DNA of 35,195 nt. It comes from Clostridia bacterium (lineage in GTDB: Bacteria > Bacillota > Clostridia > Oscillospirales > Butyricicoccaceae). Of the stretch, positions 7,938 to 35,145 are shown one piece after another. Each line of letters opens with the position of its first letter. Position 1 is the first letter of the stretch. The stretch spans positions 1 to 35,195 of the forward strand of contig CAAFJY010000108.1 in the NCBI GenBank assembly GCA_900763355.1. The letters are read 5' to 3'. Below the pieces are notes generated by a model, which did no database searches, was not told the origin of the DNA, and saw only the letters and a program-made list of their open reading frames with translations. A program made the position numbers and the translations under genes.

Positions 7938-7966
7938 TTGCGCGGGGAGCGGGAATGTAGTATACT
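7938..7966 (+). promoter_or_regulatory. Candidate promoter for the riboswitch-led giant gene (TTGCGC-17 nt-TATACT)
   Basis: TTGCGC at 7938-7943, a 17-nt spacer, then TATACT at 7961-7966. It is divergent from the GntR promoter and lies ~45 nt upstream of the riboswitch core. Confidence 0.4.
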
Positions 7967-8009
7967 TAGTCCGTCAAAAACTGAACAGGGCATGATCCGT
8001 CATCGGCGT

Positions 8010-8200
8010 CCGTTGAAAAGCGGGCGCTCAAAAGGAATCCGGTGAGAATCCGGAGCTTAGTTCCGTTAGCTGTATGTATTGGAGCCCGCATCCCGCGGCG
8101 AAAGCCGGCCATTGTGCCCCTCTGGGCGCGAGAAGGTGGGGGTGCGTGCGCGGAGAAGGATTTCTCCATAGGATACGAGCCAGAAGACTTGGTGGTGGGG
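8010..8200 (+). promoter_or_regulatory. Cobalamin riboswitch aptamer (long form with peripheral extension)
   Basis: Core sequence AAAAGGAATCCGGTGAGAATCCGGAGC..TTCCGTTAGCTGTA at 8030-8074. Extension elements are GCCATTG (8109-8115) and GCGAGAAGG (8128-8136). A B12-box-like GAGCCAGAAGACTTGG lies at 8177-8192. The order and spacing match my memory of the Rfam Cobalamin consensus. The boundaries are approximate. Confidence 0.8.
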
Positions 8201-8292
8201 CAGAAACCGCATTTTCCGGGCAGTTTTCCGGCCATGCGGTGCGCGCGGAGAGCGATCATGCACCAAAACACAGAGAACGCGGAAAAAACACG

Positions 8293-8326
8293 GCTGCGGC
8301 GAGAGTGATCTCGCCGCAGCTTTTTG
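8293..8326 (+). terminator. Intrinsic terminator (expression platform of riboswitch 1)
   Basis: GCTGCGGCGAGA gtga TCTCGCCGCAGC forms a perfect 12-bp stem (8293-8304 / 8309-8320), followed by TTTTTGTTTT. It lies 58 nt upstream of the ATG at 8384. Confidence 0.85.
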
Positions 8327-8383
8327 TTTTCCACCGATCGGGAGTGCCCGCTCAGTCAAATCAGACAAGGAAAGGAAATCAGT

Positions 8384-11300
8384 ATGAAACGGAAGATCAT
8401 AAGTCTGATCCTGGCCCTGGCCATGCTCCTGAGCATGATGCCGGCGGCCAGCCTGAGCGTCTTCGCCGCGGATGGGCATACCATCACGGTGAACACAAGC
8501 GCCCAAACGACGTTTGAGACGAAACAGGGCAAACAGGAGACGATCCCCCTGGCGGGTTATTTCACCGACAGTGCGGGACACGATCTCACCTACACTTTGG
8601 AAACGACGGGCCTGGGCCTGCACACCAAGGTCAAGGAGGACACGCTGTACTTTACAGGGTCCGATGCGAAGACCTATTCGGTGGAGGTCAAGGCGGCCTG
8701 CGCCGAGGAAGCGAGCGCCAGCGTCACCTTCACCTTCAAGGTCGCTGAGGCCGACGCCGGGGATGCGCGCCAGTATGGGTACGACGAGACCCCGGCGGAC
8801 AGCGTGACGGTCTATGTCACTGTTTCCAACGACGGCATCCCGCTGCTGGGTAATGACAACACAGTCCTCTCTCACCTGAAGGTTGAGGTCCCCTATTTCG
8901 ACCTGAACAATCAGGGACTGTCGCAGTTTTACCGGTACCATACAGAGAATGGCAGCGGTTCTTATGTAGATAATGTGGTCGTGGAGCGGCCCACCGCTCT
9001 GCACCTCTATCTCTATCTCATCGGGAAATACTATCTGGGCCTGACGGACAAAGAGATCACGCAGGGTTCCGCACAGATCGACGGTGCGGAGGGAAATCAG
9101 GGTGTGTTCTATTTTGATGGCCGCGAGACTGTTCCCTATGAGGACAAAGGCCTGGCGCTCAACGTCACCGGGAGCGCCACGCACATGTATATGAAGGCTT
9201 TCTGGGGCCACGACGAGAACCTGATGTACTACCGCAACCATGTCTATCCTCTCATGAGTCCGGGTACCGGCTCCACGGCGGACTATGTCCTCTTGAGCGA
9301 CGGGGACACCATCGATGTGGCTATGTTCTCCAACTGGAGCTTCTGGCAGAGCGGTGCCTTTGCCTGCTTTGATAAGGATGATTATTCGCTCGAACCGGGC
9401 GGAACGCTGCAATTCACCACGCAGAAATACGATACAAAAAATGTCGCCGACGGCGGCAGCGAGACCATCGAGTCCATCACCGGCCTGGATGTCTTCGTCT
9501 ATGACGAAAACTGGAGGCAGCTGGACAAGGTCTCTCCCGACGAAACCGGCGGCAGCGATTATAGCTATACCTTTGACAAAGCCGGGACCTACTACCTCCT
9601 GGCCATGGATCCCAAAGCGGGGACCAATGATTCCTGCTATGCCCCTGCCACCGCAAAGGTAAAGGTGGCCGTCAACCACACCGTCACCTTCTCCTTCCCC
9701 GAGTGCTTCGAGGGCGAAGCCACCGTGGCGCACGGCGAGGACTACACCTTCAAGCTGGCGGAGCCCTATTTCTCCGACCGGGCGAATTATGAGCTCAGTG
9801 TGAAGCAGATCGGAACGATGGCGCCCAGCACCAGCGCCAACAAGGATGCCATCGACAACGGTGACGGCACCTATACCATCCAGAACGTCACCGGCGATCT
9901 GAAGATCACGCGGAAGCCCAAGGGGAGAAAGCTGGGCTTTACTGTGACCGCCAACAAAGACAAGAAGGACTTGGTCTGCAGCCTGCCCACGGACGAGCCG
10001 GAGTACAAGACGGAGTATGCCTTTAATCTCCAGGATATCGACAGCGACAGCATCTACACCGTGACCGTCAAGGTCAACGGCAAGCCGGTCCCCGTGGAGG
10101 TGGATGACTCCTTGGCCGATATTGGATTCCTGTCCTACACCGTCGATGCCAAGCACATGACCGGCGACGTGGAAATCTATGTGGAGGAGCTGGATAAGAG
10201 CGCCACCATCTCCGTCACCGGCGTGACCCTGGACAAGAGCGCGTTGCGGCTCTTCGTCCCGGGCGGGGAAGCGACCCTGACCGCCACCGTCATCCCCAGT
10301 AACGCCGCCAACCAGACCGTCACCTGGACCTCTTCCGACACCACGGTCGCCGCGGTGGCTGACGGCAAGGTCACCGCTGTTGGCGCGGGCAAAGCCACCA
10401 TCACCGTCACCACCGAGGATGGCGGGCACACCGCCTCCTGCGCCGTCACGGTGCAGGAGGGCGAAGAGCTGACACTTTATGGCCGCATCTACGGCAGTTC
10501 CGTCAACAGCGCCTTTGCCGATCTGACCGGCGATGGCAACGGTGTGGAATACACCTGCCTGGATGTGGAAAAGAAGAGCGGCCTGGATGTGGTGAAGGGC
10601 GTTCTGGACGCCAAAGGCTACACCTATACCGTCACGGCAAACGCAGTCACCAGCATCACCTCCCCCGACGGCGTGACGCTGGCCAACGGCGACGAGACCT
10701 ATGGTCCCGAGTCCGTTTGGGTCGGCACCGTCAACGGGGTCGGCCTGGGAGAGATGGGCATGACCTCTCTGGCTGAGTATATTGTGGACAACGAGTTGAC
10801 CGGCTTTGACGGCGATGAGTTCGTCCTCACATTCACGGAATGCCCGCGTGGGGCGGATGGAGAGCACCATGACACCAACGCTGACAGCAAGTGCGACACC
10901 TGCGGCAAGGTGCTGGTGGCAGAACCCCCCGTCCCCACCCGGAAGGCGGACTACCCCGCCGAGACTGTGGCTACCGTCCAGACCGGGAAGGCCTATCTCC
11001 TTTCCGATCTCCAGACCGGCAAGGTCTTTGACCCCGTGGAGGGCCAGAAGCTGGACTACACGAACTATTACTACCAGCGTTCCACCGACGGCGGTCAGAC
11101 CTGGAGCAACAAGATCGGTTTCCCTGCGGCCACCTTTGGCGGCACCACCATCCAGCTCACCGAGACGGCGGAGGGGACCTACATTTACCGGTTCTATGCC
11201 TCCCACGACGGGAAGAACTTCTCCAAGGACACCTGGACCCTCACCCTCACGGTGCTGGACAATCCGCCCATGGACTTTTCCTTCTTTGTGGGGAAGGACT

Positions 11301-14300
11301 ATACCGGCGGCTATCCCGTCATCAAGCTCTATCCCGTCACCGCCGACAGCGAGGGGAATGAGACCCTGGGGGGCGAGCTGACGGTCACCCAGGGCGAGAT
11401 CGAGAGCAACTACCAGAAGTTCTCTGCCGATCTCATCGCCGGGCGCTATGCCTACCGGGCCTTTGCCAAAAACGCCGAAACCGGGGCCTATGACGTGGCG
11501 CTGGGCGGCATGACACTGGATCTCCCCGCCGACACCAACGTGGACGGCGGCACCGGCGGCGGAAACAGCGTCTATCTCCAGTGCAATTCCTTCTACGTCA
11601 CTTCGAAGAAAACGGATAACACCTATTTCACCGCGGACGAGTACTATGTGGAAGTGGTCTGCCCCATCATGAAGACCTCCTGCGTCATGGGCGACGCCTA
11701 TGTGAAGGGGAATTACACCTATTATCCCACCGTCCTCTATGCCGCGGGTAACGCCTGCCTGTATAACCTCTATGCCTATCCCGACATCGAGGGCTATATG
11801 TTCACCCAGACCATCAACCAGACCTTCCGGGCCGGGTATTCCGCGAACGCCAAGAGCCTGAGCCTCAACACGGCGGTCACGCTCACGGTCACCGTGCCGG
11901 AAAGCGCCGATTTCGGCCTGTATTTCCAGTGGAACAACTTCAACACCACAAAAGTGGAGCCCCTCGGCAGCTGGACGGTCAACGGCGACGGCACCAAGAC
12001 CGCGTCTTATCAGATCTCCAAGACCAACGGCAACTACACCTGGCGCATGAGCGACAGCACCCATGTCACCCAGGCCGGCTGGCTGGCCAGCCAGAGCGGC
12101 GATGCCAGTCTGGCCTTTGCCTTCGCGGAGGATGCGGCCACCGACCGGGTGTCCCACGATTTCTCCCAGCTGGGGAGCCAGACCGCACTCCGGGACGAGG
12201 CCGATCTCCAGGTCAATCTGGACCCCACCGGGTACAAGGCTCTCACCGGCACCACCCGCGTCCGGGCCTATCGCCACTGGCAGCTCATCAACTCCGACGC
12301 CGGGAACATCATGGTGGAGCCCGACTTCCACTGGAACGTCCTCTCCGGCAACGCGTCCTTTGAGACCGTCAACGGCGGCAACACCAAGGCCAACTGGGCC
12401 GACGTCACCCCCGGGACGGAGGATTCCATCCTCACCGTCTATTATGACAGCGTGGATGTGAACCATGGCAGCTACGGCACCCACGGCGGGCTCTATCCCG
12501 CCACCCAGCCCAACCGTCTGGGCGTTATCGTAGTGGGCGGCAGCGGCGTGTCCCACGGTACCGCCGACGCCCATGTGAAATACAACATGGCCGCCGGGGC
12601 CACCACCACCCGCTCCGCCGAATGGGATTACAACTACGATACCTGGTTCTATGAAGCCAGTGAGACCGCGCCCGCCCTCACCTTCACCGTGACGGGCACC
12701 GGCGACACCACGGTGGAATATGCCTTTGTCACCGCCAATGCCGACATGACGGCGGTCAAGACCGATTTCACCGCTGTTTCCGCCGAAAATGGGACCTATA
12801 CCGTTCCTCTGGCGGGCTTCCGCACCCTGGGGGCCGGGAAGGGCGGCACGGTCGTCATCAAGATGACTGACAGCACCGGTGTTTCCTACCGCCTGGTGCG
12901 CGTGGCCGAGGTCACCATCACTGCGGAAAACCTCTCCAACCCCGGGGAGGTCATCATGCCCGGCGACCAGGTCAAGCTCACCTGGACGGGGATGTACCGC
13001 GCCGTGAACAAGATCTCCGGCATCTTTAACCCGCTGCAGTTCAAGCCCACCTATTATCAGGGCGAGACCAAGTATGAGGGCGCGCTGGGCCAGTATCAGA
13101 AGATGAACAACGCCAGCGTCACCGTCGCCATCCCCAAGGATGTGACCTTCGCCGAGGGCGAGGACAGCGTGAAGCTGACCTTCACCGGCGGCTATACCTA
13201 TGGCAGCATGTATTCTGCCTCCAACCCCTTTGCCTTCCTTTACACCATGACCGACACCGGCGTGGGGACCAACTTCAACGCCGTCACCGTCAATTATTAC
13301 ATGAACCACTATGCCGACGCGGTGGTGACGGTCTCCCGCAAGGTGCTCTATGATACCGCGCTCCGCGTCACCGACGAGAGCGGCGCGGCGCTGGAGGGCG
13401 CTGCCGTCGCCCTCACCGGGCCCGAGGGGGATGTGGAAGCCGGGGCCAACGGCCGCTACAGCCTGGGCTACGGGAAATATTCCTATGTCCTGCGCAAAGA
13501 CGGCTATGTGGTCACCCGGGGCAGCTTTGCCCTGGGCTCTGCCGACGCGGACAAGCTGGTGGAGGGCGTTCTCACCATCTCCGCCTCTATGGCCAAGGCC
13601 GGGGAAAATGCCTGGGACGGCACGACCCTCACCGAGCCCACGAAGGATACCGATGGGGCCTGGCTCATCGGCACCGCCGCCGAGCTGGCCTGGTTTGCCA
13701 AGAATGGCGACAAGGGCAGCGCCAAGCTCACCGCCGACATCGACCTGGCGGGCTATGACTGGACCCCCATGAACAAGCTCTACGGCACCTTTGACGGTCA
13801 GGGCCATGTCATCCGCAACCTGTATATCAACAGCAGCAGCTACCCCGTGGGCCTGTTCGGGTATCTCCAGGGCGGGGCCAGCGTCACCCGGCTGGGTGTC
13901 ACCGGCGATGTGACGACCACGAACAAGAGTTACGGTCAGGCCGGCGGCATCGCGGGCTATATGGAAGATAACAGCTCCATCACCCAGTGCTTCAGCGCGG
14001 TCAATGTTACCAGCGGGAAGCACGGCGGCGGCATCGCGGGGTATACCAACACAACCAATGTGGTCATCTCCGACTGCTATGCCACCGGAAACATCACCAC
14101 CGTGTCCGCCAACGAGTGCTATCTGGGCGGCATCTGCGGCAGCTTCTACAACCAGCATGCCGGCGCGAAGCTGACGAACTGCTACTTCAGCGGCACAGTC
14201 AAGGGCTCCGGTGGAAACGCTTCTTATGTGGGCGGCCTGTCTCCCATTCCGAATGAGACATACTTCAGTAACTGCTATTATTTGACTGGCTGCGTCTCCG

Positions 14301-15601
14301 GCGAGAGCCCCAAATACGGCATCACCGGCCTGGGCACCGCCAAGACCGCCGAAGAGCTCAAGGCTCTGGCTCCCACCCTGGGCGGCTGGTTCACCGCCGA
14401 TGCGGGCGGGATCAACAGCGGCTATCCCATCCTCAAGTGGCAGATCGGGCTGAGCTACACCCCCGTGGAGTCGGTCACCCTGGACCAGACCGAGCTGGAG
14501 CTCATCGTGGGCAAGGAAGCGACTCTGACGGCCGCTGCCGCGCCTGCGGATGCCAGCGAGCAGAGCGTCACCTGGACCTCCTCGGCTCCCGAGATCGCCC
14601 GGGTGGAAAACGGCAAGATCACCGCCCTGGCCGAGGGCACTGCCACCATCACCGTCACCACCGTTGACGGCGGTAAGACCGCCCAGTGCCAGGTGACCGT
14701 CAAGCCGATCCCCACCTATTCCGTCACCCTCCCCGCCGACTTCACCGGCGAGAGCACCGTGCAAGACGGCGCGGACTACACCTTCACCGCCAAGGATCCT
14801 GCGAAGTACATCTACACCGTCACTGCCGCGGTGGACGGCGAGACCGTCAGCGTCACCGACAACGGCGACGGGACCTATACGGTCAAAAATGTCACCGGCG
14901 ACCTGGTGATCGAAGCCACCAAGGTCCGCCGGAGCGAGCCCATCACCCCCGTCGGCCCCGCCAAGCCGGACAAGCCCGCCGAGCCCGAAAAGCCCGAACT
15001 CACGGCGCACGCTGCCTTTGTCACCGGGTATGCCGACGGGACGGTGCGTCCCCTGAACAACATCACGCGCAGCGAGGTCGCCGCTATGCTGTGCCGTCTC
15101 CTGACGGAAAGCCAGAAGCAGAATGTGCCGCAGGCGGGCAAGACCTTCTCCGATGTACCTGCGGACGCCTGGTATCGTGAAAACGTTTTGATCCTCGCGG
15201 GGATGGGCGTTATCACCGGGCGGACAGACGGAACCTTTGCCCCCGCACAGAACATCACCCGGGCAGAGTTTGCCGTCATGCTCGTCCGCTTTGCCGGTCT
15301 CACTGGGGAGATGGACAGCGAGGTCACCTTCTCTGACATTTCCGGTCACTGGGCCGAAAGCGCCATCCGCGCCGCCGCTGCCCAGGGCTGGGTCAAGGGC
15401 ATGCGCGACGGGACCTTCCGTCCCGACGACAGCATCACCCGGGCGGAGGCCATGGCCATGCTCTGCCGGATGCTGGGCTGCGAGCCCGCCTCCGCTGCCG
15501 AACTGCCGGAGAATATGCCGGTCTTTGCCGACAATGCCGACACCGGGGCCTGGTATTACCTCTATGTTCAGGAGGCTGCCTGCGCCCGAAACGGGGAATA
15601 A
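8384..15601 (+). CDS. Giant (2405 aa) secreted, SLH-anchored multidomain surface protein
   Basis: ORF 8324..15601 trimmed to the ATG at 8384 behind AAGGAAAGGAAA. Domains in order:
- Signal peptide MKRKIISLILALAMLLSMMPAASLSVFA.
- DUF4430-like segments at ~8798-9330 (ends LMYYRNHVYPLMSPGTGSTADYVLLSDGDTIDVAMF) and ~10469-10845.
- Big_2 domains at ~10209-10455 and ~14465-14705 (..TWTSSD/A..A.V..GK.TA...G.ATITVTT.DGG).
- CarboxypepD_reg-like segment at ~13365-13535.
- GLUG/beta-helix-type block at ~13610-14443 (GLFGY.., GGIAGY.. x2, GGICGS.., ends GYPILKWQ).
- Three SLH repeats at ~15000-15480. Confidence 0.9.
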   Translation: MKRKIISLILALAMLLSMMPAASLSVFAADGHTITVNTSAQTTFETKQGKQETIPLAGYFTDSAGHDLTYTLETTGLGLHTKVKEDTLYFTGSDAKTYSVEVKAACAEEASASVTFTFKVAEADAGDARQYGYDETPADSVTVYVTVSNDGIPLLGNDNTVLSHLKVEVPYFDLNNQGLSQFYRYHTENGSGSYVDNVVVERPTALHLYLYLIGKYYLGLTDKEITQGSAQIDGAEGNQGVFYFDGRETVPYEDKGLALNVTGSATHMYMKAFWGHDENLMYYRNHVYPLMSPGTGSTADYVLLSDGDTIDVAMFSNWSFWQSGAFACFDKDDYSLEPGGTLQFTTQKYDTKNVADGGSETIESITGLDVFVYDENWRQLDKVSPDETGGSDYSYTFDKAGTYYLLAMDPKAGTNDSCYAPATAKVKVAVNHTVTFSFPECFEGEATVAHGEDYTFKLAEPYFSDRANYELSVKQIGTMAPSTSANKDAIDNGDGTYTIQNVTGDLKITRKPKGRKLGFTVTANKDKKDLVCSLPTDEPEYKTEYAFNLQDIDSDSIYTVTVKVNGKPVPVEVDDSLADIGFLSYTVDAKHMTGDVEIYVEELDKSATISVTGVTLDKSALRLFVPGGEATLTATVIPSNAANQTVTWTSSDTTVAAVADGKVTAVGAGKATITVTTEDGGHTASCAVTVQEGEELTLYGRIYGSSVNSAFADLTGDGNGVEYTCLDVEKKSGLDVVKGVLDAKGYTYTVTANAVTSITSPDGVTLANGDETYGPESVWVGTVNGVGLGEMGMTSLAEYIVDNELTGFDGDEFVLTFTECPRGADGEHHDTNADSKCDTCGKVLVAEPPVPTRKADYPAETVATVQTGKAYLLSDLQTGKVFDPVEGQKLDYTNYYYQRSTDGGQTWSNKIGFPAATFGGTTIQLTETAEGTYIYRFYASHDGKNFSKDTWTLTLTVLDNPPMDFSFFVGKDYTGGYPVIKLYPVTADSEGNETLGGELTVTQGEIESNYQKFSADLIAGRYAYRAFAKNAETGAYDVALGGMTLDLPADTNVDGGTGGGNSVYLQCNSFYVTSKKTDNTYFTADEYYVEVVCPIMKTSCVMGDAYVKGNYTYYPTVLYAAGNACLYNLYAYPDIEGYMFTQTINQTFRAGYSANAKSLSLNTAVTLTVTVPESADFGLYFQWNNFNTTKVEPLGSWTVNGDGTKTASYQISKTNGNYTWRMSDSTHVTQAGWLASQSGDASLAFAFAEDAATDRVSHDFSQLGSQTALRDEADLQVNLDPTGYKALTGTTRVRAYRHWQLINSDAGNIMVEPDFHWNVLSGNASFETVNGGNTKANWADVTPGTEDSILTVYYDSVDVNHGSYGTHGGLYPATQPNRLGVIVVGGSGVSHGTADAHVKYNMAAGATTTRSAEWDYNYDTWFYEASETAPALTFTVTGTGDTTVEYAFVTANADMTAVKTDFTAVSAENGTYTVPLAGFRTLGAGKGGTVVIKMTDSTGVSYRLVRVAEVTITAENLSNPGEVIMPGDQVKLTWTGMYRAVNKISGIFNPLQFKPTYYQGETKYEGALGQYQKMNNASVTVAIPKDVTFAEGEDSVKLTFTGGYTYGSMYSASNPFAFLYTMTDTGVGTNFNAVTVNYYMNHYADAVVTVSRKVLYDTALRVTDESGAALEGAAVALTGPEGDVEAGANGRYSLGYGKYSYVLRKDGYVVTRGSFALGSADADKLVEGVLTISASMAKAGENAWDGTTLTEPTKDTDGAWLIGTAAELAWFAKNGDKGSAKLTADIDLAGYDWTPMNKLYGTFDGQGHVIRNLYINSSSYPVGLFGYLQGGASVTRLGVTGDVTTTNKSYGQAGGIAGYMEDNSSITQCFSAVNVTSGKHGGGIAGYTNTTNVVISDCYATGNITTVSANECYLGGICGSFYNQHAGAKLTNCYFSGTVKGSGGNASYVGGLSPIPNETYFSNCYYLTGCVSGESPKYGITGLGTAKTAEELKALAPTLGGWFTADAGGINSGYPILKWQIGLSYTPVESVTLDQTELELIVGKEATLTAAAAPADASEQSVTWTSSAPEIARVENGKITALAEGTATITVTTVDGGKTAQCQVTVKPIPTYSVTLPADFTGESTVQDGADYTFTAKDPAKYIYTVTAAVDGETVSVTDNGDGTYTVKNVTGDLVIEATKVRRSEPITPVGPAKPDKPAEPEKPELTAHAAFVTGYADGTVRPLNNITRSEVAAMLCRLLTESQKQNVPQAGKTFSDVPADAWYRENVLILAGMGVITGRTDGTFAPAQNITRAEFAVMLVRFAGLTGEMDSEVTFSDISGHWAESAIRAAAAQGWVKGMRDGTFRPDDSITRAEAMAMLCRMLGCEPASAAELPENMPVFADNADTGAWYYLYVQEAACARNGE

Positions 15602-15646
15602 ACAGATTTCAGCAAAACGGATGATTTTTTAGATCAAACGGATGCA

Positions 15647-15690
15647 GCGAGGTGCGCCGAGCGGGCGCACCTCGCCTCCGTATCTTTTTA
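15647..15690 (+). terminator. Hairpin pair after the giant gene (possible partial terminator)
   Basis: GCGAGGTGCGCC gagcg GGCGCACCTCGC forms a 12-bp stem at 15647-15675. It is followed by a second small hairpin, CTCCGTA tctttt TACGGAG. The T-run is short and offset from the first stem, so termination may be leaky. Confidence 0.5.
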
Positions 15691-21646: not shown

Positions 21647-21657
21647 GGAGGAAGCAA

Positions 21658-28744: not shown

Positions 28745-28757
28745 TTTTTCCCTCAGC

Positions 28758-28792
28758 GCCCCTGCGGCAAAGTGCCGCAGGGGCATTTTTTC
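28758..28792 (+). terminator. Rho-independent terminator ending the 8.4-28.7 kb gene string
   Basis: GCCCCTGCGGCA aagt GCCGCAGGGGC followed by ATTTTTTCT. It lies 14 nt after the stop at 28744. Confidence 0.85.
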
Positions 28793-28834
28793 TCCGGAAA
28801 GGGGCGGGAATGCTGCCAAAACTCGCCATTTTGG

Positions 28835-28863
28835 TTGACAACCGGGCAAAACCGCGATATAGT
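28835..28863 (+). promoter_or_regulatory. Promoter of the riboswitch-2/ECF operon (TTGACA-17 nt-TATAGT)
   Basis: TTGACA at 28835-28840, a 17-nt spacer, then TATAGT at 28858-28863. It sits in a locally AT-richer patch. Confidence 0.65.
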
Positions 28864-28878
28864 AAGATGAATCTTCAG

Positions 28879-28995
28879 GCATATCGCGCCCTGCGGCCCG
28901 GCCGCCGGCGGAATGGGGTGAAAGTCCCCGCGAGTAGGTCACTGTGAAGCCCGGTCCCTCCCGGGATAAGTCAGATACGCCGCGCGCGCGATCCA
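28879..28995 (+). promoter_or_regulatory. Cobalamin riboswitch aptamer (compact form, no long peripheral extension)
   Basis: P1 candidate is ATCGCGC (28884-28890) pairing with GCGCGAT (28987-28993). Core sequence is GGAATGGGGTGAAAGTCCCCGCGAGTAGGTCACTGTGA at 28910-28947. A short hairpin CCCGGtccctcCCGGG follows. A B12-box-like AAGTCAGATACGCC lies at 28968-28981. Confidence 0.8.
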
Positions 28996-29037
28996 GCACT
29001 CCTGCCTGCACCAGGGGGCCCGGCGCACGATCCCAGA

Positions 29038-29071
29038 CCGCGCAAGCCCCCCTCGGGCTGCGCGGTTTTTT
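29038..29071 (+). terminator. Intrinsic terminator (expression platform of riboswitch 2)
   Basis: CCGCGCA(A)GCCC ccctc GGGCTGCGCGG followed by TTTTTT (29066-29071). It lies ~40 nt upstream of the ATG at 29113. Confidence 0.8.
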
Positions 29072-29112
29072 GCGCGCTCCCGGCGGCGGGACATGGGAAA
29101 GGAGCTTTTTTC

Positions 29113-30720
29113 ATGAAAAACAAACTGTGGAGCCGGGGGCTGAGTCTGGTTCTGGCTCTGGCTCTCTGCGCGGGACTGTGGTTCCCTGCCGGGGCCGAGA
29201 CGGCCCCCGTGGACCGGACGGCCCGCTATGTGATGAATACCGTTCAGACCCCCGCGGCGGGGAACATCGGCGGCGAGTGGGCGGCCCTGGGCCTGGCCCG
29301 CTGGGGCGGCGAAGCCCCCTCCGGCTGGTTCGAGACCTATTATCAGGCCGTGGAGGCCCATGTGAAGGAGACCTCCGGTATTCTTCATAAGAAAAAATAC
29401 ACCGAGTATTCGCGGACCGTGGTGGCCCTCACCGCCATGGGCAAGGATCCCCGGAACGTGGCGGGCTATGACCTGCTGCGCCCCCTGGGGGACTATGAAA
29501 AGGTCCTCTGGCAGGGGATCAACGGCCCCATCTGGGCCCTCATCGCCCTGGACAGCGGGGACTATGAGATCCCGGAAAACACCGATGCCGCCACCCAGGC
29601 CACCCGTCAGATGTATGTGGATCACTTGCTGGAAAAGCAGCTTCCCTCCGGGGGCTGGGCCCTCTCCGGCACCGAGCCCGATGCCGACATCACCGCCATG
29701 GCTCTCCAGGCTCTGGCCCGCTACACCGGACAGAGCGCCGTGCAGAGCGCCGTGCAGAGTGCCGTGACCTGGCTTTCCGCCGCCCAGGGCAAGGAGGATG
29801 GGGCCTATCTTTCCTATGGCACCGCCAACGCCGAGAGCTGCGCCCAGGTGGTGGTGGCTCTTTGCGCCCTGGGCATCGACCCCGCAGAGGACGCCCGCTT
29901 TGCCAAAAACGGCAGGACGGTGGAGGACGCCCTCCTTTCCTTCCAGCGGGCCGACGGGAGCTTCCATCACATCCTCACCGACAGCGGCAACCAGATGGCA
30001 ACCGAACAGGGCTTTTATGCCCTGGTGGCGCTTCAGCGTCTGCGGGACGGACGGCCCGCCCTCTATACCATGACCGACCGGCCCGGCGGCCCGGATGTGC
30101 CCAAGGGCCTGGACAACAAGGACCCGGAGGTCCAGGGCCGGCCCCTGGTATCCCCCAAGATCGACTTTTCGGACCTGAGCGGCCACAGTGACCGGGAGGC
30201 CATCCTGGCTCTCGCCCGCCGGGGCATCATCAACGGCACCGGCGACGGCGCCTTCGCGCCGGAGGGGAACATGACCCGGGCGGCCTTTGCCGCCATCATC
30301 ACCCGGGGTCTGGGCCTGAGCGGCAAGGAGACCGGGGACTTCTCCGACGTCCCCGCCGGGAGCTGGTACGCCGCCCCTGTGGGGAAGGCTGCGGAAAAGG
30401 GCATCGTCCAGGGTGTGGGCGGGGGCAAGTTCAACCCCGCCGGCACCATCACCCGGCAGGAAGCCGCCGTCATGCTTTCCCGTGCCGCCGTGCTCTGCGG
30501 CCTGGATACCGGGATGACGGAGGAAGAAGTCTCTGCCGCCCTGGCCCGGTTCAGCGACGGCGGGAGCGTGGCCTCCTGGGCTCGGAGCTCCCTGGCCTGG
30601 TGCGCCGACAACGGGCTCACCCAGGGCTGGGAGACGCTGGAGCCCACCACCCCCATCCTGCGGGCCGAGGTGGCCCGGATGCTGGCCGTTTTGCTGAAAA
30701 ACGCCGCTCTTTTGGGATAA
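29113..30720 (+). CDS. Secreted alpha/alpha-toroid (prenyltransferase / terpene-cyclase-like repeat) protein with three C-terminal SLH repeats
   Basis: GGAAAGGAG RBS upstream. Signal peptide MKNKLWSRGLSLVLALALCAGLWFPAGA. Toroid-type repeats span ~29200-30060 (GGEWAALGLARWG, INGPIWALIALDSG, LPSGGWALSG, DITAMALQALARY, CAQVVVALCALG, ADGSFHH, EQGFYALVAL). SLH repeats span ~30160-30715 (FSDLSGHSDREAILALARRGIINGTGDGAFAP.., FSDVPAGSWYAAPV..). Confidence 0.8.
   Translation: MKNKLWSRGLSLVLALALCAGLWFPAGAETAPVDRTARYVMNTVQTPAAGNIGGEWAALGLARWGGEAPSGWFETYYQAVEAHVKETSGILHKKKYTEYSRTVVALTAMGKDPRNVAGYDLLRPLGDYEKVLWQGINGPIWALIALDSGDYEIPENTDAATQATRQMYVDHLLEKQLPSGGWALSGTEPDADITAMALQALARYTGQSAVQSAVQSAVTWLSAAQGKEDGAYLSYGTANAESCAQVVVALCALGIDPAEDARFAKNGRTVEDALLSFQRADGSFHHILTDSGNQMATEQGFYALVALQRLRDGRPALYTMTDRPGGPDVPKGLDNKDPEVQGRPLVSPKIDFSDLSGHSDREAILALARRGIINGTGDGAFAPEGNMTRAAFAAIITRGLGLSGKETGDFSDVPAGSWYAAPVGKAAEKGIVQGVGGGKFNPAGTITRQEAAVMLSRAAVLCGLDTGMTEEEVSAALARFSDGGSVASWARSSLAWCADNGLTQGWETLEPTTPILRAEVARMLAVLLKNAALLG
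29731..29766 (+). repeat. In-frame 12-bp tandem repeat x3 (CAGAGCGCCGTG), encoding (QSAV)3
   Basis: The DNA reads cagagcgccgtg cagagcgccgtg cagagtgccgtg. The third unit has one mismatch. Confidence 0.9.
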
Positions 30721-30762
30721 AACCGCCCCCGAGGGGCATTTCCCGGGAAATCGGAGGAAATT

Positions 30763-31590
30763 ATGTGGAAAAAATATAAAAAGCCCATCCTGGCCGGGGT
30801 CGTCATCCTGGCAGTGCTGGCTGCGGCCTTTTTCCTGGGGGGGAGCCCCGAAAAAGGGACCACCCAGGGGAATGCCGGGAATCCCCAGAACGAGGTGCAG
30901 GACCCGTCCCTTTCCGGGAATGAACTCCCTTCGGACGATCCTTCCGACCCCGTGACTCCGGACACGCCGGACCCCAGCGGGGAGGAAACGCCCGAAACGC
31001 CCGACGCACCGGAAACACCGGAAACACCGGGAACACCCGAGCCGCCCGCCGTTTCTGATTCGGGCGGGCATCCCGGTGCAGGCCAGGAGGCGCAGGATCC
31101 ATATCACACCGACCCCGTCCCGGCGGGCAAGCCGCAGCCGGTGGAGCCCCAGGATCAGGAGACCGGCGGCAGCATCACCGTCACCGTCTCCATCTCCTGC
31201 GCCACCATTTTGGACAATATGGATCTGTGCGACGCAGACAAAAAAGAGCTTGTCCCGGAGGACGGGTGGATCCTAAAGCCCGTCTCCGTGGAAGCCCAGG
31301 AGGGGGAGAGCGCCTTCTCCCTCCTCCAGCGGGTGTGCAAGGATAAAAAGATCCACATGGAGTTCTCCATGACCCCCATCTACAATTCCGCCTATATCGA
31401 GGGCATAGGGAATCTCTATGAGTTCGATGTGGGCAAGGAATCGGGCTGGATGTTCCGGGTCAACGACTGGTTCCCCAACTATGGGTGCAGCCGTTATGTC
31501 CTGAAGGACGGGGACACGGTGGAGTGGGTCTATACCTGCGACCTGGGCAAGGATGTGGGCGGCGGACAGGCCGTCCAGTCCGAAAGCTGA
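30763..31590 (+). CDS. Membrane-tethered DUF4430 (transcobalamin-like C-terminal domain) protein
   Basis: GGAGGA RBS upstream. N-terminal TM helix MWKKYKKPILAGVVILAVLAAAFFLGG, then a Pro/Thr/Glu linker. The domain starts ITVTVSISCATILDN and ends with the hallmark GWMFRVNDWFPNYGCSRYVLKDGDTVEWVYT. Confidence 0.85.
   Translation: MWKKYKKPILAGVVILAVLAAAFFLGGSPEKGTTQGNAGNPQNEVQDPSLSGNELPSDDPSDPVTPDTPDPSGEETPETPDAPETPETPGTPEPPAVSDSGGHPGAGQEAQDPYHTDPVPAGKPQPVEPQDQETGGSITVTVSISCATILDNMDLCDADKKELVPEDGWILKPVSVEAQEGESAFSLLQRVCKDKKIHMEFSMTPIYNSAYIEGIGNLYEFDVGKESGWMFRVNDWFPNYGCSRYVLKDGDTVEWVYTCDLGKDVGGGQAVQSES
30984..31040 (+). repeat. Degenerate 9-bp tandem repeats encoding the (P-E/D-T/A) linker ETPETPDAPETPETPGTPEP
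   Basis: The DNA reads gaaacgccc gaaacgccc gacgcaccg gaaacaccg gaaacaccg ggaacaccc gag. Confidence 0.8.
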
Positions 31591-31597
31591 GGGCCCC

Positions 31598-32494
31598 ATG
31601 GAGGGAAGAGACAGCTTTTCCGGGTATCATCCCGCCGTCAATCTGCTCTATTACTGCCTGGTGCTGGGGATCACCATGTTCCACCTCCACCCGGCGTTCC
31701 TGGCCGTCTCCCTGGTGGGGGCGGCCAGCTATTGTGTCCGCCTGCGGGGGAAAAAGACCCTGCGGGGGATGCTTTTGGGCGTGGTGCCCATGATGCTCCT
31801 GGCGGCGGTGGTCAACCCCGCCTTCAATCACCAGGGGGTCACCATCCTCACCTATCTCCCCTCCGGCAACCCGCTGACGCTGGAATCCATCCTCTATGGG
31901 CTCACTGCGGCGGAGATGCTGGCGGCGGTCATCCTCTGGTTCGTCACCTTCCAGGAGGTGATGAGCTCCGACAAGTTTGTCTATCTTTTCGGGCGGGCGG
32001 CGCCGGCGCTGTCCCTGGTGCTGTCCATGACCCTGCGCTTTGTCCCCAAGCTGCGGGACCAGGGGAAGCGGGTCATCCTGGCCCAGCGGTGCGCCGGGCG
32101 GGATCTGTCCCAGGGGAGCCTTTTTCAGCGGGCAAAATTGGCGGTGACGGTCTTTTCCATCCTGGTGACCTGGAGCCTGGAAAACGCCATCGAGACCGCC
32201 GACAGCATGAAGAGCCGGGGCTATGGCCTCCCCGGGCGGACGGCCTTTTCCATCTACCGGCTGGACAGCCGGGACCGGGCCATGCTGGGCTGGCTGAGCT
32301 TCTGCGGGGTCTATCTCCTCTCCGGCTGGGCCGTGGGAGGGATGGATTTCCGCTTTTATCCCACCCTCCGGGCTTCTCAGTGGTCGCCCTGGACGGTGAG
32401 CTTTCTTTTGGTGTATCTGGCCCTGTGCCTGACACCGTGTATTCTTGACAGAAGGGAGCGTGCCCTATGGCAGCGATCGAGCTCCGGGACCTGA
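31598..32494 (+). CDS. ecfT: ECF transporter transmembrane (T) component, CbiQ/EcfT family
   Basis: ORF 31553..32494 trimmed to MEGRDSFSGYHPAVNLLYY (ATG at 31598, 8 nt after the DUF4430 stop). The protein is multi-pass with Arg-containing coupling-type motifs (ILAQRCAGRD, ADSMKSRGYG). It is followed by, and overlaps, the ECF-type ATPase gene. Confidence 0.75.
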   Translation: MEGRDSFSGYHPAVNLLYYCLVLGITMFHLHPAFLAVSLVGAASYCVRLRGKKTLRGMLLGVVPMMLLAAVVNPAFNHQGVTILTYLPSGNPLTLESILYGLTAAEMLAAVILWFVTFQEVMSSDKFVYLFGRAAPALSLVLSMTLRFVPKLRDQGKRVILAQRCAGRDLSQGSLFQRAKLAVTVFSILVTWSLENAIETADSMKSRGYGLPGRTAFSIYRLDSRDRAMLGWLSFCGVYLLSGWAVGGMDFRFYPTLRASQWSPWTVSFLLVYLALCLTPCILDRRERALWQRSSSGT

Positions 32495-35103
32495 GCTTCA
32501 CCTATCCCCTCCAGAGCCGACCGGCCCTGGAGCATCTCTCGCTGACGGTAGAACCGGGGGATTTTTTGGTGCTGTGCGGCCCCTCCGGCTGCGGGAAATC
32601 CACCCTTCTCCGTCAGCTCAAGACCGTTCTGGCCCCCCACGGGACCCGCACGGGCGAAATTCTCATCGAGGGCGTTCCCCTGGATTCCCTGGATCTCCGG
32701 GCCCAGAGCGAGACCGTCGGCTTCGTCCAGCAGAGCCCCGACAACCAGCTGGTCACCGACAAGGTTTGGCACGAGCTGGCCTTTGGCCTGGAGAGCCTGG
32801 GCTATGACACCCCCACCATCCGCCGCCGGGTGGCGGAGATGGCCTCCTTTTTCGGCATCCAGACCTGGTTCCACCGGGAGGTGAGCCAGCTCTCCGGGGG
32901 ACAGAAGCAGCTGCTCAACCTGGCGGCGGTGATGGTTATGCAGCCCCGGATCCTGGTGCTGGACGAGCCCACCAGCCAGCTGGACCCCATTGCCGCGGCC
33001 GATTTCCTGGCCACTCTGGGGAAGATCAACCGGGAGCTGGGGACCACCGTGATTTTGACCGAGCACCGGCTGGAGGACGCCCTCCCCCAGGCCACCCGGG
33101 CCGCCGCCATGGACGGCGGACGGCTCATCGCCTGCGGCACTCCCGCCCAGGTGGGGGAGGCCCTTCAGGGGGCCGGACACCGGATGTTTCTCGCCATGCC
33201 CACCCCCATGCGGGTGTGGGCCGCCGCCGGGGGGCAGGGAGACTGCCCCATCACCGTGCGGGAGGGCCGCCGCTGGCTGGAAGCCTTCGCACAAAACAAT
33301 CCCCTGCGCCCTCTCCCTCCCGCGGAGACGCAGCCCCCTGTGGGGGATGCGGTCCTCTCGGCGGAGGAGGTCTGGTTCCGTTATGAGCCGCAGGGACCCG
33401 ATGTGGTCCGTGGCCTGAGTCTGGAGCTCCGGCGGGGGGAGCTTTTGGCGCTTTTGGGGGGCAACGGCACGGGGAAGAGCACCAGTCTCCGTCTCCTGGC
33501 GGGGATCAGCAAGCCCCAGCGGGGAACGATCACCTGCCGGGGGACGGTGGGCGTTCTGCCCCAGGACCCCCAGACACTTTTCGTCAAAAAGACCGTGCGG
33601 GAGGATCTCTTCGAGATGCTTCCCAAACAGACCGACCGGCGGGAGGAACGGGCCGCCCGGGTTGCAGCCCTCTGCCAGCTGGAGGAGCTGCTGGACCGGC
33701 ACCCCTATGACCTCTCCGGCGGGGAGCAGCAGCGGGCCGCTCTGGCGAAAATTCTGCTGCTGGAACCCGATATTTTGCTCCTGGACGAGCCCACCAAGGG
33801 GCTGGACGCCGCCTTTAAGGAGGGCTTTGCCCAAATTCTCCGCCAGCTCCAGGCCGAGGGCCGCGCCATCCTCATGGTGAGCCACGACGTGGAGTTCTGC
33901 GCCCGCAACGCCGGGCGCTGCGCCCTCTTTTTCGATGGGGGTATCGTCACCCAGGGCCCGGCCCGGGCCTTTTTCTCCGGAAACAGCTTTTACACCACCG
34001 CCGCCGACCGGATGGGGCGCAGCGTCTGCCCCGGCGCCGTCACGGCGGAGGATCTCATGACCGTCTGCGGGGGCCAGGTGCCCCCCAGGCCCCCTCTGCG
34101 GGAGGATATCCCGCCCCTGCCCCCGCCGGCTCCCGAGACGGCCGACTGGAAGCCCCGGAAGCTCCCCCTCTGGCGGCGGGCGGTGGCCGCGGTGTCCGGG
34201 GGAGCGGCGCTCGCCATTTTTGCCTATGCCCTCAGCGTCACCGACCTGTCCCAGGTGGTGGGGCCGCAGGGACTGACGGCACTCAGCCGGAGCCAGGCGG
34301 CGCTGTACGGCGGGCTCATCCTGGCCCTCTTTGTCTTTGCCGCGGCGGTGAGCCGCAAAAGCGCCCTGCCCCCCGCGGTGCTCCAGATCCCCAAAGAAAA
34401 GCGGAAGCTGGGCAAGCGCACGGCAGCGGCCATGGGGCTCATTCTGCTGCTCATCCCCCTCACCCTCTTTGTGGGGGTGACCTATCTGGGCGGGCGGAAG
34501 TACTATTTCATCGCGCTGCTGATTTTGCTGGAGGCCATGCTCCCCTTTTTTCTGGTGTTCGAGGGGCGCAAGCCCCAGGCCCGGGAGCTGGTGGTCATCG
34601 CCGTCCTCTGTGCCCTCACCGTGGCGGGACGGGCCATGTTCTTCATGCTGCCGGAGTTCAAGCCGGTGGTTGCCATGACCATCCTGGCCGGGGTGGCCTT
34701 TGGGGGCGAGACGGGATTTTTGGTGGGGGCCATGTCCATGCTGGTGTCCAATATGCTCTTTTCCCAGGGGCCCTGGACCCCGTGGCAGATGTTCGCCATG
34801 GGGATCATCGGCTTCCTGGCCGGGGTGCTCTACCGCCGGGGGCTGCTGCGCCGCAGCCGGGGGAGTTTGTGCATTTTCGGGGCCATCGTCTCGGTGGTGG
34901 TCTATGGGGGGATCATGAACCCCGCCTCGGCCATTATGTGGACGGGGACGCTGGACGGCAAGACCCTGCTGACCTATTACCTCACCGGTGTCCCCGTGGA
35001 CCTGGTGCGGGGAGCGGCCACCGCCCTCTTCCTCTGGATCGGGGGCGAGCCCCTGCTGGAAAAGCTCGACCGCATCAAGGTCAAATACGGGCTGGTGGAA
35101 TAA
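32467..35103 (+). CDS. Fused ECF ATPase: tandem ABC nucleotide-binding domains (EcfA1-EcfA2-like) plus a C-terminal ~9-10-TM, S-component-like membrane domain (878 aa)
   Basis: NBD1 has GPSGCGKST, LSGGQKQ and ILVLDEPTSQLD. NBD2 (from ~33355) has GGNGTGKST, LSGGEQQR and ILLLDEPTKGLD. The membrane domain runs from ~34150; it includes LVVIAVLCALTVAGRAMFFML, MLFSQGPWTPWQMFAMGIIGFLAG, and a C-terminal LVRGAATALFLWIGGEPLL. The gene starts 28 nt inside ecfT. Confidence 0.85.
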   Translation: MAAIELRDLSFTYPLQSRPALEHLSLTVEPGDFLVLCGPSGCGKSTLLRQLKTVLAPHGTRTGEILIEGVPLDSLDLRAQSETVGFVQQSPDNQLVTDKVWHELAFGLESLGYDTPTIRRRVAEMASFFGIQTWFHREVSQLSGGQKQLLNLAAVMVMQPRILVLDEPTSQLDPIAAADFLATLGKINRELGTTVILTEHRLEDALPQATRAAAMDGGRLIACGTPAQVGEALQGAGHRMFLAMPTPMRVWAAAGGQGDCPITVREGRRWLEAFAQNNPLRPLPPAETQPPVGDAVLSAEEVWFRYEPQGPDVVRGLSLELRRGELLALLGGNGTGKSTSLRLLAGISKPQRGTITCRGTVGVLPQDPQTLFVKKTVREDLFEMLPKQTDRREERAARVAALCQLEELLDRHPYDLSGGEQQRAALAKILLLEPDILLLDEPTKGLDAAFKEGFAQILRQLQAEGRAILMVSHDVEFCARNAGRCALFFDGGIVTQGPARAFFSGNSFYTTAADRMGRSVCPGAVTAEDLMTVCGGQVPPRPPLREDIPPLPPPAPETADWKPRKLPLWRRAVAAVSGGAALAIFAYALSVTDLSQVVGPQGLTALSRSQAALYGGLILALFVFAAAVSRKSALPPAVLQIPKEKRKLGKRTAAAMGLILLLIPLTLFVGVTYLGGRKYYFIALLILLEAMLPFFLVFEGRKPQARELVVIAVLCALTVAGRAMFFMLPEFKPVVAMTILAGVAFGGETGFLVGAMSMLVSNMLFSQGPWTPWQMFAMGIIGFLAGVLYRRGLLRRSRGSLCIFGAIVSVVVYGGIMNPASAIMWTGTLDGKTLLTYYLTGVPVDLVRGAATALFLWIGGEPLLEKLDRIKVKYGLVE

Positions 35104-35120
35104 AAAAGAAAAAACAAAAA

Positions 35121-35145
35121 GCGGTCCTTCATGGACCGCTTTTTT
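35121..35145 (+). terminator. Rho-independent terminator after the ECF operon
   Basis: An A-rich run, then GCGGTCC ttcat GGACCGC followed by TTTTTT. Confidence 0.85.

Follow-up and report, generated by a model that had tools for sequence, protein, structure and literature searches.

A candidate corrinoid-scavenging gene cluster with two riboswitch-type leaders in a gut Oscillospiraceae bacterium

Competition for vitamin B12 and other cobamides shapes gut communities, and the capture machinery is understood in Bacteroidota only. The Oscillospiraceae are a dominant group of gut Firmicutes. In Bacteroides thetaiotaomicron, a relay of the surface proteins BtuG, BtuH, BtuJ and BtuK feeds BtuB, and in the Gram-positive Firmicutes extracellular cobamide capture "remains entirely uncharacterized" (2026 review, PMC13616437). 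Here, we analysed a stretch of 35,195 nucleotides from a clostridial genome (contig CAAFJY010000108.1, assembly GCA_900763355.1), hereafter the window, which carries a cluster of ten genes, g1 to g10. Our reading, to which we give a probability of roughly 60%, is that this cluster is a regulon, laid out as two B12-repressed transcription units, g1 to g6 (block 1) and g7 to g10 (block 2), with which a monoderm Oscillospiraceae bacterium of the gut scavenges corrinoids (vitamin B12 or cobamides). Judged from its genomic context, block 1 is a member of the B12 regulon and not a bystander, because its core is tied to riboswitches, to the DUF4430-toroid-ECF-CbrT genes and to cob salvage genes in many species and in several gene orders. 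Surface corrinoid scavenging is the most economical function for the cluster, which is so far the strongest candidate for an extracellular B12 scavenging machine in Gram-positive gut bacteria.

Regulatory context and conservation of the cluster

Genes were called from a listing of open reading frames (ORFs) and by inspection of start codons and ribosome-binding sites in the window. The ten genes lie between positions 8384 and 35103 and are all on the plus strand, as stated in an earlier note that had been made from the letters of the window. The region upstream of g1 has a canonical cobalamin riboswitch aptamer (riboswitch 1, 7984-8210, plus strand), which aligns to the full Rfam model RF00174 (1-189) with 56.6 bits (gathering score 31.5, E 1.2e-11) and scores 109 bits with R1, our own cobalamin covariance model, which was built from this gene neighbourhood. 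The expression platform contains an intrinsic terminator (8292-8331, plus strand; stem 8292-8321 and a T-tract). It has a 13-bp stem with 9 GC pairs and a 4-nt loop, followed by TTTTGTTTT, and it ends 53 nt before the start of g1. The earlier note had placed a cobalamin riboswitch and a terminator ahead of a 2405-residue SLH protein and had proposed an Rfam scan of this leader. The scan score above the gathering threshold, the terminator stem and the position of g1 as the next gene bear this out. The consensus promoter scan found no plus-strand promoter for riboswitch 1. A perfect TTGACA-17-TATAAT promoter is located just upstream of it on the minus strand (7847-7875) and is directed away from the cluster.

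The genomes of GTDB species were scanned with an alignment of g6. They encode 177 relatives, nearly all of them in Oscillospiraceae or Clostridia gut genomes, and the neighbourhoods of 80 of these relatives (loci designated L0xx) were examined. The same gene set is found in well over fifty related species. A few relatives with the cluster are listed under strain or isolate names and may be cultivable, namely Faecousia intestinalis CLA-AA-H192, Brotocaccenecus cirricatena CLA-AA-H272, a Ruminococcus sp. 5_1_39BFAA isolate and Clostridiaceae bacterium Marseille-Q4145. Around the g6 homologues of the Oscillospiraceae, a core is kept that comprises g2, the toroid gene, the genes for MoxR, DUF58 and a transglutaminase (TGase)-like protein, and g6. 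Two gene orders can be described from the tblastn maps. Type A is g2-MoxR-DUF58-TGase-g6-toroid(-DUF4430-EcfT-EcfAA'S), and type B is g2-toroid-MoxR-DUF58-TGase-g6(-SLH protein/DUF4430-EcfT-EcfAA'S). There are 58 loci with at least 8 kb of sequence upstream of g6; in 54 of them this upstream part contains the MoxR trio, and g2 is present in 53 and a toroid gene in 55. The trio is conserved more than any other part of block 1 and has the order MoxR, DUF58, TGase core in the window and in the same 54 loci, so that the place of the DUF58 gene (g4) after MoxR is kept as well; the other four have a permuted order. Downstream of g6, counted over all 80 loci, many of which are incomplete, DUF4430 was found in 26 and ECF genes in 23-24.

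In relatives, the core passes unbroken into toroid-DUF4430-EcfT(-EcfAA'S). In L007, L008 and L009 the toroid gene lies 10 nt from g6, with no leader between them, and in L088 one riboswitch precedes the uninterrupted series g2-toroid-MoxR-DUF58-TGase-g6-SLH protein-DUF4430-EcfT-EcfAAS. With model R1 and manual reading of the maps, about 20 species-level loci were found whose cluster has a cobalamin riboswitch at its 5' end. An automated count of riboswitches at cluster starts gave 15 of 45, which is too low because the detection of ORF runs is imperfect. The Rfam gathering score is reached in the window and in ten loci, namely L030, L079 and L083 (two riboswitches each), L050, L058, L061, L066, L076, L078 and L088. 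Riboswitches are also located directly before g6 (L077, L079, L083), before g1-like giants (L054, L066) and before ecfT (L030). Recurrent neighbours of the cluster are cobT (6 loci), cobS (6), cobU (5) and a gene for a cobC-like phosphatase (4), and also genes for cohesin, dockerin or Flg_new scaffold proteins. The earlier note had suggested asking by comparative genomics whether the gene set co-occurs with B12 riboswitches, and it does so in about 20 loci. Its proposal that blocks 1 and 2 make one functional B12-regulated unit is supported, and STRENGTHENED by evidence that was new to it (synteny, riboswitches, CbrT and cob genes).

A separate observation concerns cobalamin riboswitches that stand back to back on opposite strands and serve divergent operons, in L058 (441-1019), L077 (1820-2442) and L088 (2036-2783). 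The minus-strand riboswitch of L088 faces a g1-like gene.

Domain composition of the encoded proteins

Transcobalamin, intrinsic factor and haptocorrin are composed of an α6/α6 barrel and a β domain, and the β domain corresponds to the Pfam family DUF4430 (PF14478). Block 2 encodes an α/α-toroid, a DUF4430 protein and a transporter. The first gene, g7 (29113-30720, plus strand), codes for a secreted α/α-toroid of 535 residues, of the prenyltransferase or squalene-cyclase-like type, with a signal peptide and three SLH domains (SLH, E 9e-37; SQHop_cyclase_C, E 1.2e-6). The product of g8 (30763-31590, plus strand) is a membrane-tethered protein of 275 residues, which has a transmembrane (TM) anchor [5-31], a linker rich in Pro, Glu and Thr, and a DUF4430 domain [139-268] that matches PF14478 with 65.2 bits against 23.8 (E 7.5e-18). 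The 298-residue product of g9 (31598-32494, plus strand) is an EcfT-like transmembrane component. Its topology fits EcfT and its gene adjoins g10 in about 23 loci; its family matches are weak, and those to CbiQ (E 0.003) and TIGR02454 (E 3.5e-4) are both under the cut-offs. The last gene, g10 (32467-35103, plus strand), codes for 878 residues in which EcfA and EcfA' are fused, via extra TM spans, to a CbrT-like S-component, as indicated by Pfam, NCBIfam and the PDB. It has two ABC_tran domains (E 2.9e-58), scores 314.1 bits with TIGR04520 (cut-off 315) and 284.9 bits with TIGR04521, and is above the cut-off of the cbiO subfamily. The S-component, at residues ~703-875, is above the gathering scores of ECF-ribofla_trS and ECF_trnsprt. 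Pfam, topology and the PDB match thus agree with the earlier note, which had described block 2 as an SLH toroid, a tethered DUF4430 protein, EcfT and a fusion of EcfA-EcfA' with a membrane part.

The sole PDB sequence match of the g10 C-terminus is chain A of entry 6FNP (E 5.6e-8). This entry is ECF-CbrT of Lactobacillus delbrueckii, which imports cobalamin and cobinamide (eLife 2018, PMC5997447), and from the length of chain A, 182 residues, we infer that it is CbrT. The transporter of the window resembles ECF-CbrT in the match of its S-component, in its two EcfA-type ATPase domains and in the presence of an EcfT-like protein, although the match of the latter is weak. However, EcfA, EcfA' and the S-component make one polypeptide of 878 residues with about four extra TM spans, and the transporter genes are part of a much larger cluster of surface-protein genes, behind those for the toroid and DUF4430.

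Block 1 contains three surface-protein genes, g1, g2 and g6. The g2 protein (15836-19459, plus strand) is a membrane-anchored protein of 1207 residues, whose start codon was inspected. It is composed of an N-terminal TM span, an acidic, Pro-rich linker, a DUF4430-like domain [828-947] encoded at 18317-18676, and a C-terminal region with about seven CxxC motifs. A phmmer search with the g8 domain matches residues 896-946 (independent E-value 7.5e-6). An hhalign comparison of 27 domains of the g8 family with 63 proteins of the g2 family gives a probability of 98.6% for segment 828-947, with an E-value of 9.3e-16 over 106 columns. Furthermore, an iterated DUF4430 hidden Markov model matches all 65 of the 65 g2-family ORFs from related loci. 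On these sequence comparisons, g2 clearly carries a DUF4430-like domain. The CxxC motifs lie at residues ~975-1160 (18760-19320 in the window), in the extracytoplasmic part, and this region may be a metal-binding or disulfide-rich module.

The g6 protein (24059-28744, plus strand), described from Pfam and AlphaFold2, is a secreted protein of 1561 residues with a signal peptide. It comprises a transcobalamin-β-like N-terminus, a helical bundle, cadherin-like Ig domains, a propeller and Big_3. The N-terminal domain (residues ~39-116, nucleotides 24173-24406) aligns to DUF4430 in hhalign with a probability of 65-80% and an E-value of about 1e-5. The AlphaFold2 model of residues 26-195 has a mean predicted local distance difference test score (pLDDT) of 90.5, and when it was compared by Foldseek with 350,542 PDB chains, the top 13 were all transcobalamin or its isolated β domain (5no0, 5np4). 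By this model, the N-terminus of g6 is likely DUF4430- or transcobalamin-β-like. The propeller (residues ~960-1385, nucleotides 26936-28213) has eight blades of the BamB/PQQ type, with a weak PQQ_2 match in Pfam. It was modelled with a pLDDT of 75.8, its top Foldseek matches are BamB, YxaL and PQQ-ADH, and in the family alignment it is the most conserved part of g6. A BtuG-like propeller was considered and rejected, the top 50 matches being BamB, YxaL, PQQ-ADH, tetrathionate hydrolase and designed propellers.

Homologues of g6 form about 60 clusters down to 39% identity, and the more distant ones have a C-terminal dockerin. The C-terminus of g6 in the window (28400-28744) has no dockerin, whereas the orthologues P0041-P0060, at 54% identity or less, do. 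In the dockerin-bearing relatives, cohesin(+SLH) genes take the place that the SLH giant g1 occupies in the window, so that the mode of anchoring has been swapped. Anchoring would thus vary by lineage, with SLH domains (g1, g7) and TM tethers (g2, g8) in the window and cohesin-dockerin pairs in relatives.

The first gene of the cluster, g1 (8384-15601, plus strand), starts with an ATG at 8384 behind a good ribosome-binding site and encodes a secreted giant of 2405 residues with a signal peptide. Its Pfam domains are CarboxypepD_reg, GLUG, two Big_2 and three C-terminal SLH. Residues 125-345 (nucleotides 8756-9418) make an unclassified extracellular domain, g1A, with the invariant motif FWGHDENLMYYRNH...ADY.LLSDGD. 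This domain has no match in Pfam and no sequence match in the PDB, and it has 495 cluster representatives in a library of 1.84 billion proteins, where it is mostly combined with dockerin, fn3 and Big_2. The g1-like proteins of L054, L060, L061, L062, L066, L081 and L089 contain it, and L070 and L079 have it in fusion with g6-like ORFs. Because g1A is often the first coding element behind the cobalamin riboswitch in related clusters, we regard it, from its genomic position, as a candidate new corrinoid-related domain. DUF4430 was sought in g1 at residues 125-345 and ~697-825 and rejected, since three profile tests gave hhalign probabilities of 0.2-9%, and there was no support even with a 73-sequence alignment from the search of 1.84 billion proteins; neither segment matches a Pfam family or a PDB sequence. 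A CDTCG motif after residue 825 resembles the CxxC motifs of g2. The earlier note had seen DUF4430-like segments in g1, g2 and g6. This stands for g2 and likely for g6, and it does not for g1. Among the searches that the note had proposed (hmmscan, HHpred, AlphaFold and Foldseek), Pfam finds DUF4430 in g8, profile comparison finds it in g2, and the structural model favours it for the N-terminus of g6.

The region between g1 and g2 (15602-15835, plus strand) is structured, with a minimum free energy of -99.9 kcal/mol (z -4.0) and a 12-bp GC hairpin at ~15647-15675. In L090 the stem of this hairpin is kept and the loop is altered. The earlier note had expected terminator-like hairpins here; strong structure is indeed present, but no canonical terminator was found in this gap. 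Possible roles of this structure are attenuation, processing and stabilisation.

Cobalamin in transcobalamin is sandwiched by members of two fold classes, an α/α-toroid and a β domain. Comparison of transcobalamin with the window shows that β-type domains recur, as DUF4430 in g8, as a DUF4430-like domain in g2 and as a model closest to the β domain at the N-terminus of g6. A gene for an α/α-toroid accompanies the cluster, and in L029 (14407-15684) a single ORF of 425 residues has the toroid N-terminal to DUF4430 (PF14478, E 3e-16), in the α-β order of transcobalamin; this fusion is a single example and could be an assembly error. However, at the level of sequence profiles the toroid family of the window resembles terpene cyclases and not the α domain. 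Its profile matches the SQHop_cyclase_C-like entry 7xq4 in the PDB (E 4e-18), squalene-hopene cyclases and the TED domains of thioester proteins, and any relation to the α domain of transcobalamin is therefore one of fold class only. The two halves are separate proteins in the window, and they may clamp a corrinoid jointly.

The remaining genes of block 1 encode the MoxR-DUF58-TGase trio, which the model of the earlier note had left unnamed and without a role. The g3 protein (19551-20504, plus strand) is a MoxR-type AAA+ ATPase of 317 residues (AAA_3, E 1.8e-56; AAA_lid_2, E 1.1e-26; bpMoxR). It has no signal peptide and no TM segment, and is therefore presumably cytoplasmic and without direct action on extracellular substrates. 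DUF58 proteins are the usual partners of MoxR, and g4 (20504-21646, plus strand) encodes a DUF58-like membrane protein of 380 residues with 20.2 bits to PF01882, whose gathering score is 23.4. The g5 protein (21658-23985, plus strand) is a TgpA-like polytopic membrane protein of 775 residues, with TM segments and a Transglut_core domain (E 7.3e-19). We placed the positions of the Cys-His-Asp triad from what we take to be the transglutaminase core motif. At the canonical Cys position there is D496 in the window and S, D or T across 70 family members; the His is present in 44 of the 70, and the Asp position is E or D. The fold motifs that surround these positions in the core (residues ~494-562, window 23140-23340) are invariant among the 70 relatives. 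The protein is, by these substitutions, probably a pseudo-enzyme. Active cross-linking by g5 is disfavoured, because the canonical nucleophile is replaced by D, S or T throughout the family.

A comparable gene set has been described in Bifidobacterium, where the PFNA cluster (pkb2, fn3, aaa-atp, duf58, tgm) couples a large secreted FN3 protein to such a trio and has an unresolved function (PMC8430577). Both clusters have the order of a large surface protein, a MoxR AAA+ ATPase, DUF58 and a polytopic TGase-like protein. In contrast to the PFNA cluster, that of the window has no Ser/Thr kinase, is under the control of a cobalamin riboswitch and is linked with genes for the toroid, DUF4430 and ECF-CbrT; moreover, its surface protein has a DUF4430-like domain and its TGase core lacks the canonical Cys.

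The compact leader of block 2

The gap between g6 and g7 (28745-29112) contains the signals that separate the two blocks. Block 1 is closed by an intrinsic terminator (28758-28792, plus strand; stem 28758-28784), which has a 12-bp stem with 10 GC pairs, followed by ATTTTTT. A sigma-70-type promoter of block 2 (28835-28863, plus strand; TTGACA-17-TATAGT) has 11 of 12 consensus matches. It is followed by a compact element that resembles cobalamin riboswitches and is below the Rfam thresholds (riboswitch 2, 28875-28999, plus strand), and then by the intrinsic terminator of its expression platform (29035-29074, plus strand; hairpin ~29035-29068, -24.9 kcal/mol, z -4.05, followed by UUUUUU). The terminator-like hairpins that the earlier note had seen in this gap are thus present, as the terminator of block 1 and that of the leader, along with a promoter. 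Its second claim, a compact cobalamin riboswitch with a terminator, stands in part: there is a conserved element with promoter, terminator and covariation, but its Rfam scores are too low.

An Rfam search with 551 nt around the element gave no match of clan CL00101. The search with 136 nt gave RF01482 alone, with 14 bits against a gathering score of 50 (E 1.8), and model R1 gives 18.8 bits (E 0.52). The argument for the element is one of conservation. In L090, where g6 is 81% identical, the segment from the -35 box to ~29020 is nearly 100% identical and the promoter is invariant, whereas the intergenic sequence on either side has diverged; the P6-like hairpin is lengthened there in a compensatory way. 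The same compact architecture is found in L062, L070 and L080, so that four lineages have it in all. A 5' hairpin is followed by GGAAUGGGGUG..CCCC, then by GGUCACUGUGA, a variable hairpin and AGUCAGAUAC, and the whole is enclosed by a P1 stem whose sequence is unrelated among the lineages. The core motifs GGAAUGGGGUGAAAGUCCCC, GUCACUG and AGUCAGAUAC are invariant in the five sequences from these lineages. RNAalifold finds 31 pairs in these five sequences, 10 of them with compensatory changes, and 90.9% of the cells are paired, in a structure that was derived from the same alignment. On four of five measures none of 500 shuffled alignments comes up to the real one, on the fifth measure one does, and slid controls have 0-3 compensatory pairs. 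This conserved island, its occurrence in four lineages and the compensatory changes make riboswitch 2 a genuine element.

The L080 member aligns to RF00174 from end to end, with the P6 extension deleted, at 23.5 bits (E 1.8e-4 in a short search), which is below the gathering score, and the score of the L062 member is 11.2 bits. Riboswitch 1 is a full RF00174 member. Riboswitch 2 has in common with the families of clan CL00101 the core motifs and a layout of P1, P2, P3, P4 and P6-like stems, but one short variable hairpin takes the place of the peripheral P6 extension, and the scores of its family are 11-23.5 bits against gathering scores of 31.5 and 50. Within the fetched loci, a covariance model of the compact family (R2) found no members past the four lineages and no cross-matches to the canonical switches. 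From these alignments, riboswitch 2 is related to the cobalamin riboswitch but compact and divergent, presumably with a corrinoid ligand, and would be a variant that the present Rfam models miss. Each of the four lineages has it inside the cluster as a second switch, with a canonical one at the 5' end of the same cluster. The two kinds may sense different corrinoid forms or different thresholds.

A third kind of weak cobalamin-like leader, which differs from the canonical and compact forms, precedes a second ecfT-ecfAA'-S set in L007 (19130-19300), L036 (19841-19975) and L038 (19259-19393). It scores 18-22 bits with R1 and is below the Rfam thresholds.

Proposed function and alternative readings

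Unit 1 would comprise riboswitch 1 and its terminator, followed by g1, g2, the MoxR, DUF58 and TGase-like genes and g6. Unit 2 would have its own promoter and the compact cobalamin-like riboswitch with its terminator, followed by the genes for the SLH-toroid, the tethered DUF4430 protein, EcfT and EcfA-A'-CbrT. When intracellular corrinoid is low, transcription would read through at both leaders. Unit 2 would then supply the importer, a homologue of ECF-CbrT, and a pair of binders close to the wall and the membrane, the α/α-toroid and the DUF4430 β domain. Unit 1 would supply an outer layer that consists of the SLH-anchored g1, the membrane-anchored g2 with its DUF4430-like domain, and the secreted g6 with its β-like N-terminus and propeller. 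The MoxR AAA+ ATPase, the DUF58 protein and the TgpA-like protein, whose TGase fold is apparently non-catalytic, would serve as an assembly or maturation module for this surface complex. Domain content and regulon membership suggest a multi-tier relay, in which g1, g2, g6, g7 and g8 would bind corrinoids and captured molecules would pass inward to CbrT for import. In several relatives, the adjacent cobU, cobT, cobS and cobC genes could remodel the imported corrinoids.

The Btu relay of Bacteroides is the closest functional parallel to such a system. The two are alike in having B12-riboswitch-controlled loci with several surface proteins ahead of a transporter, and Ig-like domains fused to binding modules. 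In BtuGH the binding domain is N-terminal to a β-propeller, and g6 has the same domain order. However, the propeller of g6 is 8-bladed and of the BamB/PQQ type, while those of BtuG and BtuK are 7-bladed. The window belongs to a monoderm, and anchoring is by SLH domains, TM tethers or cohesin-dockerin pairs and not by lipoproteins. The importer is of the ECF type and not TonB-dependent, and the MoxR-DUF58-TGase trio is added. No homologue of the Btu surface binders was found, with no match to DUF4465 or similar Pfam families at E<=10 and no PDB sequence match to Btu proteins. NCBIfam has no family for g2, g4, g5, g6 or g8, and full-text literature searches turned up no earlier account of this gene set or system. 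The composition of the cluster is unprecedented, the parts in common with known B12 systems being the ECF transporter and the DUF4430 domain only.

Several results weigh against a scavenging function for the whole cluster. Pfam at E<=10 detects no DUF4430 in g1, g2 or g6. The Foldseek E-values of the g6 N-terminus are modest (2e-3 to 0.2), with TM-scores of 0.49-0.52 on the target for the β domain, and its propeller is a generic BamB/PQQ one, with no BtuG among the top 50 matches. Neither Pfam, the PDB nor profile comparison reveals a recognisable corrinoid-binding domain in g1, the gene right behind riboswitch 1. The PDB profile search gave no sequence-level link between toroid and transcobalamin, and riboswitch 2 is under the gathering thresholds of RF00174, RF01482 and RF01689 alike. 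MoxR-DUF58-TGase trios with large secreted proteins also occur without a link to B12, the PFNA cluster being an example. Lastly, most of the type A loci, which are the closer ones, have no riboswitch within the fetched flank. This absence is uninformative, because cohesin or Flg_new genes of the same direction take up the upstream part of these loci, as g1 does in the window.

The most serious alternative, which we nevertheless consider unlikely, is that block 2 alone handles corrinoids and that block 1 is a PFNA-type module for surface architecture or adhesion, merely co-regulated by B12. Such a module could, for example, tether the cell to neighbours that produce corrinoids, to mucus or to particles and bind no corrinoid itself. 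The bifidobacterial trio and its large secreted FN3 protein have been linked to adhesion and host signalling, most of g1 and g6 consists of Ig-like, cadherin-like, GLUG and propeller modules that are typical of adhesins, and relatives have cohesin-dockerin and Flg_new modules; the absence of a demonstrable binding domain from g1 would be expected as well. However, g2, an invariant member of the core, has a clear DUF4430-like domain, and the N-terminus of g6 models as transcobalamin-β-like. In type B loci, moreover, the toroid gene lies within the MoxR block. The core directly adjoins the DUF4430-ECF genes in relatives, with gaps of 10 nt, and some loci have riboswitches right before g6. That the linkage as a whole is incidental, with block 1 an unrelated envelope operon beside a riboswitch-bearing neighbour and riboswitch 2 a conserved GC-rich leader, is very improbable. 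The sub-threshold Rfam scores of riboswitch 2 and the many loci in which no riboswitch was seen in the fetched flank would fit it, but the association of riboswitch and cluster recurs in about 20 species-level loci with differing gene orders, ten of them at the Rfam gathering score. The synteny with DUF4430-ECF and cob salvage genes is likewise recurrent, and the family of riboswitch 2 has covariation and a weak global alignment to RF00174.

An alternative of another kind keeps corrinoids as the substrate and makes block 1 a machine for release or piracy, which would dock onto corrinoids bound to proteins or particles, for example to host haptocorrin, intrinsic factor, dietary complexes or the binders of other microbes, and would strip or process them. 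Remodelling by the MoxR ATPase and the TGase-fold protein would precede the hand-over to DUF4430, toroid and ECF importer. AAA+/VWA-type MoxR systems remodel protein complexes in general, and the TGase-like superfamily includes peptidases. The large multi-domain binders and the conserved propeller face outward, and the BtuG-type surface binders of Bacteroides set a precedent for competitive capture. Against this stand the loss of the canonical catalytic Cys in the 70 family members, the presumably cytoplasmic location of MoxR, which could not act directly on extracellular substrates, and the lack of any protease or other hydrolase domain in g1, g2 and g6 by Pfam. We consider piracy more doubtful than the adhesion module, if not as far-fetched as an incidental linkage.

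Returning to corrinoid scavenging by both blocks, a more specific version can be put forward tentatively, at somewhat poorer than even odds. The cluster would be a dedicated surface corrinoid-harvesting apparatus of the Oscillospiraceae, with split transcobalamin-type binders, g1A and a propeller, an assembly module of MoxR, DUF58 and a pseudo-transglutaminase, and control by two classes of cobalamin riboswitch. Because it would be anchored by SLH domains in the window and by cohesin-dockerin pairs in relatives, the apparatus would be cellulosome-like. If this is true, the cluster would be the first example of an extracellular B12 relay in monoderms and would give the MoxR-DUF58-TGase trio, which is widespread but unexplained, its first assigned cellular role. 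The cluster would also point to split bacterial relatives of the architecture of animal B12 carriers. It offers concrete candidates that can be tested, with defined domains and two riboswitches.

The genes upstream of the cluster are unrelated to it and comprise a serC-like gene, a 2-hydroxyacid dehydrogenase gene, DUF1015 and a minus-strand ABC ATPase gene. The anaerobic ribonucleotide reductase NrdD is independent of B12. A gut metagenome-assembled genome, GCA_964307735.1, matches the window and extends past g10, with nrdD followed by another giant SLH protein. The same arrangement of nrdD and a giant protein of 3362-3372 residues, after the ECF genes, is found in L003 (7539-13593) and L092 (21629-24692), and matches to SLH and Flg_new were recorded for the L003 copy.

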